Shown here one piece after another: positions 5,029 to 38,627 of a DNA stretch of 64,000 nucleotides (positions are counted from its first letter, which is position 1; each line of letters opens with the position of its first letter). Source of the DNA: a virus (lineage: Duplodnaviria; Caudoviricetes); the IMG/VR virus record IMGVR_UViG_3300028364_000013. One strand, 5' to 3'. The translations under genes were made by a program, and so were the position numbers. The notes beneath the pieces were generated by a model. That model had not been told where the DNA came from, searched no databases, and saw only the letters and a program-made list of their open reading frames with translations.

Positions 5029-5159
5029 GAAAACTTAAACTAAACTACAAAAAGCGTTATCATTAATTTGGTAACGCTTTTCTATTTTTATTATAAATAG
5101 ATAAAAAATATAAAATCGAACCCCAATTTCACAATTAAGTTTATAGGGCTATTAACTTG

Positions 5160-5233
5160 CACTCCGTATCGGATTCAAACCGATGGTCTTCTCATAGAAA
5201 GTGAGACGTGTTGGGTCGCTACACTAACGGAGC
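5160..5233 (-). tRNA. tRNA-Glu(TTC), non-canonical D and T loops
   Basis: GCTCCGT/ACGGAGT acceptor; TCTCA-CTTTCTA-TGAGA anticodon arm; T arm ATCGG-TTTGAAT-CCGAT; D loop lacks GG. Confidence 0.75.
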
Positions 5234-5236
5234 GTT

Positions 5237-5321
5237 TGGTCTTGCGTATCGGATTCGAACCGATGAACCTTTCGGGCTGCCTTGAAAGGGCAGTTACTTT
5301 GAGCCGCTTGTATAACGCAAG
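5237..5321 (-). tRNA. tRNA with TTC anticodon, extended (type II) variable arm and encoded CCA
   Basis: CTTGCGT/ACGCAAG-A-CCA; 3-bp D stem; CTGCC-CTTTCAA-GGCAG; variable region CCCGAAAGGTTC; T arm ATCGG-TTCGAAT-CCGAT. Confidence 0.8.
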
Positions 5322-5496
5322 AAATATAAGCACAAAAAAAGAGGATAACACTTGTGCTATCCTCTTGACTACGATTTTGCGATTTAAAAATCCCTCAATC
5401 TGGTTTGTTAACTTAGAGCATAGCGAAGTAGTGGAGTCTCCTCCAAACGTTCACTGTTCTCTATGTTTACAAATCTTTTCATTTTCTTATTTTTTG

Positions 5497-5569
5497 TTGC
5501 GCAGGCCAGACTCGAACTGACGACCTCAAGATTATGAGCCTTGCGAGCTACCAACTGCTCCACCGCACT
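5497..5569 (-). tRNA. tRNA-Met(CAT), initiator-like
   Basis: GAGC-AGTTGGTA-GCTC D arm; CAAGG-CTCATAA-TCTTG; A1:A72 mismatch as in fMet tRNAs, but lacks the three G-C anticodon-stem pairs. Confidence 0.85.
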
Positions 5570-19069: not shown

Positions 19070-19711
19070 ATGACAAACGTAAAGAAAGATTCAGAACAAG
19101 CTACTAAAGATAAAGCAAACGTAGCAGTGCTTCAAGATATTAATGCCACAGCAAGAGCAAAAGATGATGCTTTTAGTAAGCTGTATGGTAGACACAACCA
19201 ACAAGTCCGCATTCACTTCCTCAAGAGATTGAGAGATACAGATGTTGCTGAGGATTTGCTTATGATAACTTTTGTAAAGGCGCATGAGAACATTAACACT
19301 TATGACCCAAAAGTGGGTGCATTTTCTACTTGGTTGTACAAGATTGCAAACAACTCTTTGATTGACTTGTTGAGAAAAGCAAAGTTCGAAGTTCTTTCTT
19401 TGGATTCGCTTCAAAGTAAGACGTCAGACGACAATGATGGAATGGAATTTCAATTAGATTCAGATACTCCAAACCCATTGCAAATTCTTGTTCATGATGA
19501 GGTAACAAAACAAGTTTCTGATGCAGTTAATTCTATTAAGTCCAAAAAAGTTCGTGAATTAATGATTTGCAGATACATTGATGAAATGAGTTTTGAAGAA
19601 ACGGCAAAGGCTCTTGGTCTTGAATTGAATTCAACACTTAGAACAGCTGTTGCAAGAGGTAAAGAGATTCTTAAAAAGAAATTAGCTAACCTTGAAAATA
19701 ATGTCTCATAA
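19070..19711 (+). CDS. ECF-type (sigma-70 group 4) RNA polymerase sigma factor
   Basis: AFSKLY...AEDLLMITFVKA...FSTWLYKIANNSLIDLLRK (region 2); RYIDEMSFEETAKALGL...RGKEILKKKL (region 4). Confidence 0.9.
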   Translation: MTNVKKDSEQATKDKANVAVLQDINATARAKDDAFSKLYGRHNQQVRIHFLKRLRDTDVAEDLLMITFVKAHENINTYDPKVGAFSTWLYKIANNSLIDLLRKAKFEVLSLDSLQSKTSDDNDGMEFQLDSDTPNPLQILVHDEVTKQVSDAVNSIKSKKVRELMICRYIDEMSFEETAKALGLELNSTLRTAVARGKEILKKKLANLENNVS

Positions 19712-34847: not shown

Positions 34848-35051
34848 ATTTTATAGTTTAATTTTTTATTATTTATTTACCGTTTTATTATACGTTTCTA
34901 AACTTAGAATGTTCTATTTTTCCCCCGCTTATTTATGGAATAGTGTTTAAAACTTTTGAGAATTCAGCTATTGGTGAATCGTCTAATTAATCAACAGTTG
35001 TGTGGTTTTTCTTATTTCTCCTGGCTATTAGCCAGTCTGTTAATTTTTCTA

Positions 35052-35297
35052 TCATACGTCAAATCCTTCAATCTTCAGCTTATCGTAAGCAATCTTTACA
35101 AGTTGTTCATGAGAGAACAATTTGCTCATGCTATCGTAGCTTGTTCCTGTAAGCAATTCGAAAGACTCTTCCTTAAGATTTGTCTTTTGCTGTTCTGTTA
35201 AAGTTTCATACCAAGTCATTGACTCAGTGCCTTCAAGAGCGTCATCCACAGGGCTCATTGCTCCTAATGATAACGAAAGTGCTGTTAATATTTTCAT
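35052..35297 (-). CDS. Hypothetical protein
   Basis: ORF track. Confidence 0.65.
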   Translation of the reverse strand: MKILTALSLSLGAMSPVDDALEGTESMTWYETLTEQQKTNLKEESFELLTGTSYDSMSKLFSHEQLVKIAYDKLKIEGFDV

Positions 35298-35337: not shown

Positions 35338-35979
35338 TTAATTTTCAAAATAATTATCACACATACCACAGTGCCACATATCATTACACATATATTCAGT
35401 GTATGTACTGCCACAATCACACATAACTCCAGGAATAGTTGGTTCGCCAGAAATCATATAATCTTTAACTTCAACTTCAGATTTTCCTATTTCTCCTGGA
35501 ACTAATCTTCCATCTTGCTGCACGCTGTACGATTGATACGGTTCGAGTTTCTGAATGTCTGTGTTTAGATTAACTAAAAAATCAAAATACTTCTCTGCAT
35601 CTTTTCTTAGCATTTCATCAGATTTATCCCATTTTTTAATCACTGCATCAATTGAATAATTGTATTGTTCATATATTTCATCATGATATGTTCTATCAGG
35701 AGCTATATGTCCAATTTTTTTGAATTCAATTTTCATTACATCAGGTGTATTAAAATTTAAAATATCTTTTCCATAAGATTCATCTACAGCATCAACAATT
35801 TTTTCAATAAAATCGTCTTCATCACTATATAATTTTTCACCTTCTTCAGAATCAAAAAATTCATCCCTTTCATCTTCATTAGTAAAAGCATTTCTTATCT
35901 TTTCTCTTTTTATGTTTAATAAAACAGCGTTTTTAAAAAGAGAAAAGATATAATCATTAAATTTAAGTTTTGAGTTCAT
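35338..35979 (-). CDS. Hypothetical acidic protein with C-terminal CxC..CxxC motif
   Basis: Starts 2 nt after the PARP stop. Confidence 0.8.
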   Translation of the reverse strand: MNSKLKFNDYIFSLFKNAVLLNIKREKIRNAFTNEDERDEFFDSEEGEKLYSDEDDFIEKIVDAVDESYGKDILNFNTPDVMKIEFKKIGHIAPDRTYHDEIYEQYNYSIDAVIKKWDKSDEMLRKDAEKYFDFLVNLNTDIQKLEPYQSYSVQQDGRLVPGEIGKSEVEVKDYMISGEPTIPGVMCDCGSTYTEYMCNDMWHCGMCDNYFEN

Positions 35980-35981
35980 TT

Positions 35982-37259
35982 TTAGTTATTAAGTTCAACA
36001 ATGTAAGCAATCGTGCATCTCTTTGATTCATAGACAATAATCTCATCATTATACAAAGAGCTTCCAGCGTGTGCGAAAGTACAATCGTAATCACCTTTGC
36101 TATCAAGTTTGCTTTGACAAAGACTTGAGTCTGATGAAGTTACATCATATTGTCTTCCTATGTGTACATCAAACAAAGCCAAGTATCCTTTATTGTCATT
36201 TCCTCTTGCCCAGTAAGAGCCAGAAAGAGATGAATATCCAATAGACTTCTGTGCTTTGTTGGAAAAGTAAATACCATCACCAAACATTGACCCTGTGTGT
36301 TGAACACCAGATGGACGAATAAGAAGTCCAGTCTGAATAATGTTAAACCAGTTCTCATTTCTTGAACCGTGCCACAATAGCAATCTATTTTTTAAATTGG
36401 CATTGGCATAGTGTGCATCAAACTTTGCTTGAGTTGATTTATTTACACACTTGAACAGTCTGCTTAATTGATTTGCGTTATTTCCAAGCAATTTCTTTAC
36501 AAGAGCAATTGCTTTTGGGTCTTTCTCTTCTGTAACTTCAAGCCCCATCTTATCAAGAAGGTCTGGCGCTGCTTTGACTTCATCCTCTTCTTCCTCATCT
36601 TCATCAGATGCGTTTTGAGTAATCATTGCCACCTGACCAGCCATTGTATCAAGAATAGACTGCTCATTGGCAATGAAGTCTTTCATTTCTTCAATGGTGT
36701 AATCATCTTCATTTAGCAAGAAGTCTTTAACGTTGCTCATCTTTCTTGGGATGGTAGCATAAAGTTCCAATAATTTTTCATTTATTGGCTCTATCTTATT
36801 TGCCTTGGTAGAATTGTTTCTCACAATTACTGCGGCAGCATCAATGATTGCTTGTGCGTTGTCAACCTGCTTCTGTGTTACATCTTCTTGTGTAATCTTA
36901 TAGTTGGCACCAATGGACTTGTTTGCGTATGCCATAAGGTCATCAAACAATGCTTGCACCTCTGCTTCAGAGATATTTACAATTCCAGTAGATTTTTGTG
37001 CTTGCTTAATTACAGCTTCATCAGTCTTGTCTACATAACCTTTTCGAGCTGAAGTCTTTTGGTTATATGTAGCATTCCACTTAGATGAAGATTTAACATC
37101 AACAGCCATTTTTGTACCAATCCTTCCATAGGTACATCTAATTGTTCCATTGGATTGCTCTTCCATTATGTAGACTTTGTTGGACTGACTTGTCTTTCCG
37201 TTGTCTACACTAACATGTATTAGTTTGGCATATCTCAGCCCGTCCTCTTTTGTTATCAT
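35982..37259 (-). CDS. Poly(ADP-ribose) polymerase-like protein (WGR + helical regulatory + catalytic)
   Basis: N-terminal SNKVY...YGRIG (WGR-like); LYATIP (PARP_reg-like); WHGSR...GSMFGDGIYFSNKAQKSIGY...NDEIIVY with H-Y-E triad. Confidence 0.88.
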   Translation of the reverse strand: MITKEDGLRYAKLIHVSVDNGKTSQSNKVYIMEEQSNGTIRCTYGRIGTKMAVDVKSSSKWNATYNQKTSARKGYVDKTDEAVIKQAQKSTGIVNISEAEVQALFDDLMAYANKSIGANYKITQEDVTQKQVDNAQAIIDAAAVIVRNNSTKANKIEPINEKLLELYATIPRKMSNVKDFLLNEDDYTIEEMKDFIANEQSILDTMAGQVAMITQNASDEDEEEEDEVKAAPDLLDKMGLEVTEEKDPKAIALVKKLLGNNANQLSRLFKCVNKSTQAKFDAHYANANLKNRLLLWHGSRNENWFNIIQTGLLIRPSGVQHTGSMFGDGIYFSNKAQKSIGYSSLSGSYWARGNDNKGYLALFDVHIGRQYDVTSSDSSLCQSKLDSKGDYDCTFAHAGSSLYNDEIIVYESKRCTIAYIVELNN

Positions 37260-37268
37260 TTGTGTGGT

Positions 37269-38087
37269 TTATATCAATTCTTTTTCTTTTAAGTAATCGT
37301 AAAGACAAGGTAAGTTCAATAAATATTGATTATGATATGTTGAACCTCCGTAGTAATCTCCTTCTCTAAATTCACGAACACTAACGCAATTGTTGGCAAT
37401 GTTCTTATATTGCAAGAATGATATTGATGGTGCTACTTTTTCAAGAAGCTCATCAAGTTCTGTCATTGAGTCTGGCGCTTTACTTGGAGACACAGAACCA
37501 GAATTGCCCCAGCAATCCTGCCAAGTTCCTCCAAGGCTCCATGAATCACCCTTAACAACCCCTTCTTCATTTGCATAAAGCTGATGCTCATCAGAAAACA
37601 TTTTCCATTCTGGCTTTCTCTGAACATTATAAGTTTTTTTGCTAAACTTTATCTTCTTATATTTTTCAATATCTTTGACCTCCATTATTTCATTAATAGA
37701 ATCAATTTTAGCATTCTCTATGGTGATTGCAGAGTCTTCATCTCTTCTGTGCGTGTCGTTCCAGATGCAAGCTTCTACGTTTGGATTCCAATAGTGAATT
37801 ATTACGTGTGATGGAAGCCTGTTTCTATCACAAGCAATTTCAAGAACCTTTTCAACATCTTTTCTTGTAAGAAATAACCCATCAAGAAAAGTATGTCTAT
37901 CAAACAAGCTGCTTCTATCTTTAATAAGCTCTTCCATGTTTTTATATCTTCCTCCTCTTGCTCCATGCAAATATTGGTCGCACTCAATTAAGTTGGCGAG
38001 TCTACCCATTTCCTTGTGAAGTATTTTGAATGCGGATGTCTTTCCGCTTCCTGGAAGTCCGACTGATATGTGTAATTCTCTATGCAT
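37269..38087 (-). CDS. AAA_33/polynucleotide-kinase-like P-loop kinase with C-terminal extension
   Basis: VGLPGSGKT Walker A at the N-terminus; after class B promoter 38107. Confidence 0.7.
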   Translation of the reverse strand: MHRELHISVGLPGSGKTSAFKILHKEMGRLANLIECDQYLHGARGGRYKNMEELIKDRSSLFDRHTFLDGLFLTRKDVEKVLEIACDRNRLPSHVIIHYWNPNVEACIWNDTHRRDEDSAITIENAKIDSINEIMEVKDIEKYKKIKFSKKTYNVQRKPEWKMFSDEHQLYANEEGVVKGDSWSLGGTWQDCWGNSGSVSPSKAPDSMTELDELLEKVAPSISFLQYKNIANNCVSVREFREGDYYGGSTYHNQYLLNLPCLYDYLKEKELI

Positions 38088-38169
38088 TAACGCTGTTGTT
38101 TGAAAGTTATACGAAAAAAAAAGAGGAATGTTCTAAAAACTTCCTCTTTTATTATATCTTGTAAAAACA

Positions 38170-38279: not shown

Positions 38280-38627
38280 TTATTTCTTAAAAGAGCTTGC
38301 TACAGCAAAGAAGTATTCTTCTTTTTCTCTTTCAATATCTTCCAGTTCATCAAAACTACAAAGTCTTGGATTGGTTTTGTTTCTGGTAGAATAATCAGGC
38401 CCATATTCCCAACCATCTTTTCTCTTTCCAATTACAAAATTGTAGTGAGCTTCTTGTGGGCTTCTTACAATTCCTTTTACGATTTTCTCTACTGAGTCAG
38501 CAACAATTGCATGATGCTCTGGAGACTTATCTTCCCAAGGAATTACTTGCATTCCATTGTTTTTGCAAAGTACGTTATGCACCTCGTGGCACGTCTTTGC
38601 AATTTGTAACTTTTTCTTGTTTTTCAT
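38280..38627 (-). CDS. RyR-repeat domain protein
   Basis: AHYNFVIGKRKDGWEYGPDYSTRNKTNPRLCSFDELEDIEREKE matches the RyR (Ryanodine receptor repeat) pattern. Confidence 0.75.
   Translation of the reverse strand: MKNKKKLQIAKTCHEVHNVLCKNNGMQVIPWEDKSPEHHAIVADSVEKIVKGIVRSPQEAHYNFVIGKRKDGWEYGPDYSTRNKTNPRLCSFDELEDIEREKEEYFFAVASSFKK

Follow-up and report, generated by a model that had tools for sequence, protein, structure and literature searches.

What does a bacterial virus do with a poly(ADP-ribose) polymerase (PARP) laid out like the DNA-break-activated enzymes of eukaryotes, and do the genes packed against it belong to the same system? The question is raised by the gene of a 425-aa PARP (35982..37259, minus strand) in a 64,000-nt stretch of viral DNA, hereafter the window, which corresponds to bases 279-64278, read on the reverse strand, of the 142,155-bp IMG/VR viral record IMGVR_UViG_3300028364_000013. 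The record is linear, has a GC content of about 35% and is a fragment, with a completeness of 65% as estimated by CheckV. Its carrier is a large lake-water phage, probably with a host of the Bacteroidota type. An original prediction, made from the letters of the window, had described a PARP with a WGR domain, a helical domain and an H-Y-E catalytic triad, expressed in one operon with a kinase and a zinc protein. We found that the gene product truly belongs to the clade of WGR-HD-ART ('DNA-dependent') PARPs, named for their WGR domain, helical regulatory domain (HD) and ADP-ribosyltransferase (ART) domain, and that it has the minimal layout of PARP2, PARP3 and the bacterial PARPs. The neighbouring genes, for the kinase and the zinc-ribbon protein, are passengers specific to the lineage and not fixed partners of the PARP.

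Domain architecture of the phage PARP

The catalytic domain was recognised directly from the sequence. Pfam PARP (PF00644) matched residues 263-423 with an E-value of 5e-25 and 88.5 bits, against a cut-off of 26.7 bits, and the full length of the protein was covered by a match to PHROG 23333 (E 3e-49). Across 27 aligned family members the residues H297 (in WHGS), Y331 (in GIYF) and E406 (in NDEIIVY) were invariant. The family profile aligned these three residues to H862, Y896 and E988 of PARP1, in the HGS, GIYF and NEY motifs, and also recovered the HGS motif, the K-S pair and the second tyrosine of PARP1, so that in all these features the phage protein is like PARP1, PARP2 and PARP3. The ART domain comprises residues 238-425 (35985..36548, minus strand) and was delimited by PF00644 and the triad, the codons of which are found on the same strand at 36369-36371 (H297), 36267-36269 (Y331) and 36042-36044 (E406). 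Compared with PARP1 WGR-CAT chains, the family profile gave an E-value of 4e-23 with an alignment reaching back to profile position 28, and from position 129 it aligned to the PARP1 helical domain.

The structure prediction gave the same picture for the helical and catalytic domains. The AlphaFold2 model had a predicted local distance difference test (pLDDT) value of 72.7, and its best Foldseek matches were WGR-CAT chains of PARP1 in complex with a double-strand break (E 1e-17, about 485 aligned columns). In VIA superpositions residues 94-425 of the model were placed on residues 662-1007 of PARP1, 231-577 of PARP2 and 183-532 of PARP3, with Z-scores of 21-23.6, about 295 residues aligned and a root-mean-square deviation of 3.3-3.9. 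By profile and VIA the HD was assigned to residues 94-237 (36549..36980, minus strand), with an acidic low-complexity linker at its end. The Pfam family PARP_reg matched below its threshold, in three of the 27 members and with a best E-value of 0.0033.

The WGR domain was the weakest of the three at the sequence level. In the N-terminus of the window PARP it reached 13.4 bits, under the Pfam cut-off of 22, and sub-threshold matches were obtained for 7 of 24 family N-termini (best E 0.0034); a profile of the N-terminal domain only, searched against the PDB sequences, returned chance matches and no PARP. A six-frame scan of the genome with Pfam WGR and PARP_reg gave no candidates, a result that carries no information. 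Residues 4-67 of the homologue in Cellulophaga phage phi17:2 scored 25.8 bits with Pfam WGR, and BLASTP aligned them to residues 13-75 of the window PARP within a full-length match (E 4e-49). Because this collinear homologue scores above the cut-off, the N-terminus of the window PARP was assigned as a WGR domain (residues 1-80; 37020..37259, minus strand), an assignment made by Pfam via phi17:2, by Foldseek and by alignment. The predicted fold has four beta strands and a helix. The family motif is YGR[IV]G, present as YGRIG in the window PARP, and G45, R46 and G48 are invariant. The layout of WGR, helical domain and H-Y-E triad that had been predicted was thus confirmed by PF00644, the invariant triad, the superposition of the HD-ART part and the phi17:2 homologue. 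Profile searches by themselves carried the PARP domain, while WGR and PARP_reg stayed sub-threshold on the protein's own sequence or family and were backed by the homologue and the structure.

No Pfam match to a zinc finger or BRCT domain was found in the window PARP, and the WGR domain starts at residue 1 with no sequence N-terminal of it. Since it is without zinc fingers and BRCT, the protein is not a PARP1 orthologue in its layout. The order of WGR, HD and ART is the same as in the structures of PARP1 WGR-CAT, PARP2 and PARP3 (4dqy, 7s6h, 3c49, 4tvj), but the sequence identity to human PARPs is only about 18-22%. Unlike the human proteins, the window PARP is also without an N-terminal tail, and it has an acidic low-complexity insert after the HD. 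The W of the WGR motif is replaced by Y in most phage family members, and Y986 of PARP1 corresponds to Asn in the window PARP. Bacterial PARPs (Herpetosiphon aurantiacus, Clostridioides difficile) have a minimal WGR-HD-ART arrangement, and in most of them the helical domain is often missed by Pfam as PARP_reg (PMC8120803). Compared by description (PMC8120803), the window PARP is like these proteins in its three-domain layout and poor PARP_reg recognition, and unlike them it belongs to a family that is essentially viral. Closer relatives are the PARPs of Cellulophaga phages phi17:2 and phi4:1, which are annotated as poly(ADP-ribose) polymerase (PHROG 23333). The phi17:2 protein is a full-length collinear homologue with 32% identity and the same three domains, although it is shorter (383 aa) and differs in its neighbours and in the type of phage.

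The window PARP is a new member of a large, already catalogued family of phage PARPs. A phage PARP was recorded in Aeh1 in 2005 (PMC1266365), PARPs were noted in a few jumbo phages in 2021 (PMC7824862), and a survey of 21,191 viral proteomes counted PART/PARP as one of the most frequent ART families in viruses (PMC9503650). The earlier statement that such enzymes are uncommon in phages held for cultured phages, with 16 matches in 50,697 deposited phage genomes, eight of them full length (Cellulophaga phages and one uncultured phage). It did not hold for metagenomic phages: a metagenomic protein collection contained 2,277 relatives, nearly all on phage contigs, and many of these were 50-80% identical, about 430 aa long and located on contigs of up to 376 kb. 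At least 49 PARP loci were present in IMG/VR. Among 185,579 species-representative prokaryote genomes two matches were obtained, both on contigs of metagenome-assembled genomes (MAGs) that resemble phage DNA.

Two archaeal labels were met in the course of these comparisons. A contig of 425,361 bp labelled Pacearchaeota (L067, JBBACR010000001.1) carries a phage PARP together with a type IX secretion sorting-domain protein, and because it encodes the latter it is probably a mis-binned Bacteroidota phage. A homologue of the kinase (P0134) was found on a contig deposited as a Nanoarchaeota MAG. MAG contigs with these labels that carry the PARP or the kinase are probably giant Bacteroidota phages mis-binned as DPANN archaea.

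The transcription unit and its exchangeable genes

All genes between about 26 kb and 46.5 kb of the window lie on the minus strand, and the PARP gene is placed within a long array of small non-structural genes. The immediate gene order is a 272-aa kinase (37269..38087), the PARP and a 213-aa acidic zinc-ribbon protein (35338..35979), all on the minus strand, with gaps of 9 nt and 2 nt, and no Shine-Dalgarno-like sequence was seen between the three genes. A promoter motif emerged from comparing the intergenic regions. The pattern TAGAACA-N14-18-GTATAA was found 14 times in the window, whereas 0.04 copies were expected; the sites span 20106-62285, are all co-oriented with the local genes and have the class consensus TAGAAC-N16-CGTATAA(C/T). 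The copy at 38107..38135 (minus strand) is directly upstream of the kinase gene and is the class B promoter that had been proposed for this position. As the next promoter of the class on this strand is only found at 34888-34916, the unit comprises the kinase, the PARP, the zinc-ribbon protein and an acidic ORF (open reading frame) of 81 aa (35052..35297, minus strand). The latter is probably the last gene of the unit, and relatives of it were absent from every fetched locus. With a single promoter and such short gaps, the predicted co-transcription of the PARP with its neighbours from the 38107 promoter is very probable.

A hairpin with the arms AAGAGGAAG and CTTCCTCTT followed by a T9 run lies at 38110..38150 (minus strand; RNA fold -14.9 kcal/mol, z -2.3). 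It overlaps the -35 element and the spacer of the 38107 promoter, and is probably the terminator of the upstream RyR-gene unit. The -35 GAAC and -10 CGTA elements, 16 nt apart, resemble promoters of extracytoplasmic function (ECF) sigma factors, of the Bacillus SigW-type consensus. By analogy, the motif may be read by a phage protein with a Pfam Sigma70_r2 domain, itself of 213 aa (19070-19711). Simple sigma-70 and terminator scans showed no enrichment over shuffles, and a 16-mer, CGTATAACTTTCAAAC, was rejected as a promoter as it was not repeated.

The presence of a P-loop kinase upstream of the PARP, as originally predicted, was verified by the P-loop GLPGSGKT (Walker A; 38037-38060, minus strand) and by a confident AlphaFold2 model with a kinase fold (pLDDT 94). 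The kinase domain covers residues 1-159 (37611-38087, minus strand), as assigned by structure matches, and the C-terminal part, residues 160-272, is an alpha/beta domain specific to the family. In this family of 69 members GLPGxGK, D37, D69, C107, N110, R114, W183, G186 and G187 are invariant; its motifs include a lid-like C-x2-N-D-x2-R-R and, in the C-terminal domain, SW-x-GG-x-W and DYYGG. The structures nearest to residues 1-159 were the fungal Trl1 RNA kinase (Z 13.8), Clostridium thermocellum Pnkp (13.7), PSTK (13.6), T4 Pnk (12.2) and mammalian PNKP. Over its whole length the protein was matched by a KTI12-annotated cluster of the ESM Atlas (TM 0.74), and an ESM Atlas feature search with the C-terminal domain gave no usable match.

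From the predicted structure, we read the 272-aa protein as a putative polynucleotide- or tRNA-kinase-like enzyme. Its P-loop kinase fold matches those of T4 Pnk, C. thermocellum Pnkp, the Trl1 kinase, mammalian PNKP and PSTK/KTI12 (Z 12-14). It has an invariant Asp after strand 2 and the lid-like motif, and in its two-domain size it is like KTI12 and PSTK. Unlike the comparators, it is without a phosphatase or ligase domain, and its C-terminal domain matched nothing in the tests made. A nicotinamide-riboside kinase for NAD (nicotinamide adenine dinucleotide) synthesis was also considered and was rejected, with a Z-score of 8.4 for NRK1 versus 13.8 for polynucleotide kinases.

The acidic protein with a Cys motif that had been described downstream of the PARP was also found as such. 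It has a pI of 4.4 and a four-Cys zinc ribbon, C187-x-C189 ... C204-x2-C207 (35359-35421, minus strand), identified in an alignment of its relatives, and each of the four sequences with the motif retains all four cysteines. Only the last 30 residues, with the C-x(1,2)-C ... C-x2-C ribbon, are well conserved, and the protein may bind metal through them, as judged from the sequence. No Pfam or PHROG family was found for it, and a word-indexed search of 5.8 billion proteins returned only the protein itself. Among 1.8 billion representative proteins there were five weak relatives, the two best of which are encoded on short contigs with no adjacent PARP. The 213-aa protein is a near-orphan and a passenger unrelated to the PARP. 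At the end of the PARP gene, a piece of about 35 nt (35957-35991) was the sole match of contigs in three other lake runs, and both flanks diverge; this piece may be a recombination boundary of a variable downstream slot.

In the close clade the promoter/hairpin and the PARP are kept, with the RyR gene upstream, and the genes on both sides are exchangeable. The gene of the 115-aa RyR-domain protein (38280..38627, minus strand; Pfam RyR 27.0 bits, E 5e-6, against a cut-off of 27.4 bits) is the sole upstream neighbour that is kept near the PARP in all close relatives (L051-L056 and L058). The same promoter/hairpin was found upstream of the PARP unit in L051, L052, L053 and L058, with different genes between it and the PARP: the kinase, the kinase plus a 74-aa ORF, or genes for proteins of 132 aa and 195 aa. 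In L058 the closest relative of the kinase (78% identical) and a PARP of 77% identity downstream of it are separated by the 74-aa ORF, and in this sister lineage the PARP is followed by an AAA_21-like gene. In relatives with 72-81% PARP identity the kinase slot is filled by the 132-aa and 195-aa genes or by the RyR gene. A 51%-identical relative of the kinase is flanked by MgtC and GmrSD_N genes and has no PARP in its vicinity. When all ORFs of the PARP loci L002-L059 were searched with iterated profiles, the kinase was detected in one sister lineage only and the zinc-ribbon protein nowhere. Both the kinase and the promoter motif were absent from all 49 listed loci of the PARP clade with about 50% identity.

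Two further observations were made on the surroundings of the kinase relatives. In the same variable region of related phages, genes like MgtC and GmrSD_N were met repeatedly (L060:4552-6727 and L056:2210-5057), once on either side of a kinase homologue. On contig L058 a protein with a match to the Cas6 C-terminal domain (contig positions 1-737) is encoded about 4 kb upstream of the kinase.

Possible roles of the enzyme

We lean, with somewhat better than even confidence and from homology and gene context only, towards an ADP-ribosyltransferase that is activated by nucleic-acid ends, gated by its WGR domain and HD, and active in phage repair or counter-defence. The WGR domain would bind a broken nucleic-acid end, and this binding would relieve the autoinhibition exerted by the helical domain. 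The H-Y-E site would then use NAD+ to ADP-ribosylate the enzyme itself, nearby proteins or the terminal phosphate, in the repair of phage nucleic acids or in counter-defence against host nucleases. A promoter specific to the phage, with elements like those of ECF-sigma promoters, would drive expression of the PARP, which would be the constant part of a short unit whose other genes can be exchanged between strains. DNA breaks with a 5'-phosphate activate PARP2 and PARP3 by way of the WGR domain, and in vitro the terminal phosphates of DNA can be ADP-ribosylated by PARP1-3. In the lineage-specific pairing seen here, the kinase could provide 5'-phosphorylated ends, the ligand favoured by WGR-only PARPs.

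The genes near the PARP in other lineages are consistent with this role. In the clade with about 50% identity, an RNA ligase is located about 1.2 kb upstream of the PARP in 38 of the loci listed and an ATP-dependent DNA ligase about 3.2 kb upstream in 34 of them, while the gene of a 239-aa PTH2-like hydrolase follows 9 nt downstream in 42 of the 52 PARP-bearing loci listed. A tblastn search for the neighbours of this clade in the genome of the window found none. The PARP of Cellulophaga phage phi17:2 has a gene for a CCA-adding/poly(A) polymerase on one side and, two genes off on the other side, a DNA ligase. The uncultured phage LR756500, with a PARP of 36% identity, has an NMNAT-like gene upstream, R2K ATP-grasp and AAA genes downstream, and an RNA ligase and an HD-AAA_33 (HD-Pnk-type) kinase 3-5 kb downstream; an NMNAT-like gene is also present upstream of the PARP on the 425-kb MAG contig L067. 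For NAD supply, the record of the window itself has an NAD-salvage gene, that of a NAPRTase. The class of neighbour thus recurs though the orthologues differ, and comprises enzymes that heal, extend and seal nucleic-acid ends along with NAD supply. Since synteny is inherited within each clade, these linkages are perhaps four or five independent observations and not dozens. DNA end handling, one of the functions first proposed for the locus, therefore has contextual support from the kinase structure and from the ligases, the HD-Pnk and the CCA-adding enzyme near PARPs elsewhere.

Several points weigh against activation by nucleic-acid ends. RNA ligase and ATP-dependent DNA ligase are absent from the 142-kb record, so the link with ligases comes from other lineages, and within each clade the linkage may be inherited synteny rather than a result of selection. 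The kinase is absent from the flanks of the relatives with 81%, 73% and 72% PARP identity, and its family is missing in 12 PARP-bearing phage records, four of which were estimated to be complete. Its P-loop scored 20.5 bits with Pfam AAA_33, under the cut-off of 27 bits, and nucleoside monophosphate and sugar kinases come close behind the polynucleotide kinases in the structure ranking (PFK2, gluconate and adenylate kinases, Z 11-12.8). The confidence of the PARP model is moderate, with parts of the ART domain below a pLDDT of 50. The H-Y-E triad is no proof of polymer synthesis, as the mono-transferases PARP3 and PARP4 illustrate. Finally, phage PARPs have been catalogued by comparative genomics, and no assay or other biochemical study of any of them was found in the literature searched.

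A more specific form of this idea is that the kinase and then the PARP act in series on the same ends, the 5'-OH being converted to a 5'-phosphate before the phosphate, or the PARP itself, is ADP-ribosylated. Host nucleases acting on phage DNA or on tRNA would generate the 5'-OH ends; the WGR-PARP would bind the phosphorylated product, and the end would be capped, protected or flagged for phage ligases. We consider such a series improbable. If it were true, there would be an end-capping or repair pathway with PARP chemistry and varied partners (RNA ligase, DNA ligase, HD-Pnk, CCA-adding enzyme, PTH2-like hydrolase) in thousands of environmental giant phages.

The main rival to end activation is a host take-over enzyme, in which the WGR domain merely tethers the PARP to nucleic acid. 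The jumbo-phage survey proposed such a take-over role for phage PARPs (PMC7824862), and this role would suit both the position of the gene in a long array of small non-structural genes and a phage that re-programmes transcription with its own sigma factor. However, take-over enzymes of the T4 type belong to the R-S-E clade and are without WGR and HD sensors. The autoinhibitory HD is conserved family-wide, which argues for ligand-gated rather than constitutive activity, and the recurrent neighbours of the PARP are of the repair type and not transcription factors. For these reasons we regard take-over as unlikely, although it deserves to be kept in view.

Less credit is given to counter-defence by NAD+ chemistry, in which the enzyme would act with no sensing of ends, either by using up NAD+ or by ADP-ribosylating host defence proteins or signalling nucleotides, and would so weaken immunity that depends on NAD+ or on nucleases. 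PARP-bearing phages do contain macrodomains and genes of NAD salvage, and NAD+/ADP-ribose systems are central to the conflict between phage and host (PMC9503650). Against this, the WGR-HD architecture is typical of break-activated enzymes and no defence-related partner is conserved beside the PARP gene, and we find this explanation rather implausible.

Erasers of ADP-ribosylation were searched for in the whole 142-kb record, and no Macro, PARG (eukaryotic or microbial type), ARH or NADAR match was found. The observation that the window has no visible macrodomain or PARG eraser was therefore extended to the record, but this absence is uninformative, because the record is incomplete and macrodomain genes (one or two) are carried by 7 of 12 PARP-bearing related phages, tens of kb from the PARP where both positions are on record. 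No microbial PARG was found in these 12 phages. A protein identical to the kinase lies on a 364-kb contig.

A dedicated module in which the kinase, the PARP and the zinc-ribbon protein work as one ADP-ribosylation system is very improbable, because, for all the tight gene packing behind a single promoter and the closeness of kinase and PARP in the sister lineage, the neighbourhood comparison found that the operon partners are not conserved with the PARP: the zinc-ribbon protein is a near-orphan whose checked relatives are not beside PARPs, and the kinase is missing from the 72-81% relatives, the 49 listed loci and the 12 PARP-bearing records, and has a homologue between MgtC and GmrSD_N genes without a PARP. 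The 'kinase-PARP-Zn operon' of the original prediction should not be carried forward as a system. What the locus does offer is a compact 425-aa candidate and a simple model for WGR and HD gating outside eukaryotes, and the recurrence of end-healing, end-sealing and NAD-supply genes near phage PARPs gives a testable hypothesis on PARP chemistry in a bacterial virus.

Other features of the record

The stretch is held by lake-water metagenomes, with identical fragments in at least four further runs. The contigs of four further lake runs were low-depth pieces of the stretch and had no informative joints. No RNA dataset was present among the sequencing runs listed as holding the stretch, and no near-identical DNA was found in the cultured-phage collection. 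Outside the window, the same record encodes a PncB-like NAPRTase of 421 aa with the N-terminal and catalytic domains (G000:C1:105879-109604, L057), and GIY-YIG/NUMOD homing-endonuclease genes lie on either side of its gene. Within the window a tRNA cluster was detected at 5159-5569 (minus strand), with tRNA-Glu(TTC), tRNA-Met(CAT) and a second, Glu-like call of 85 nt made by ARAGORN alone.

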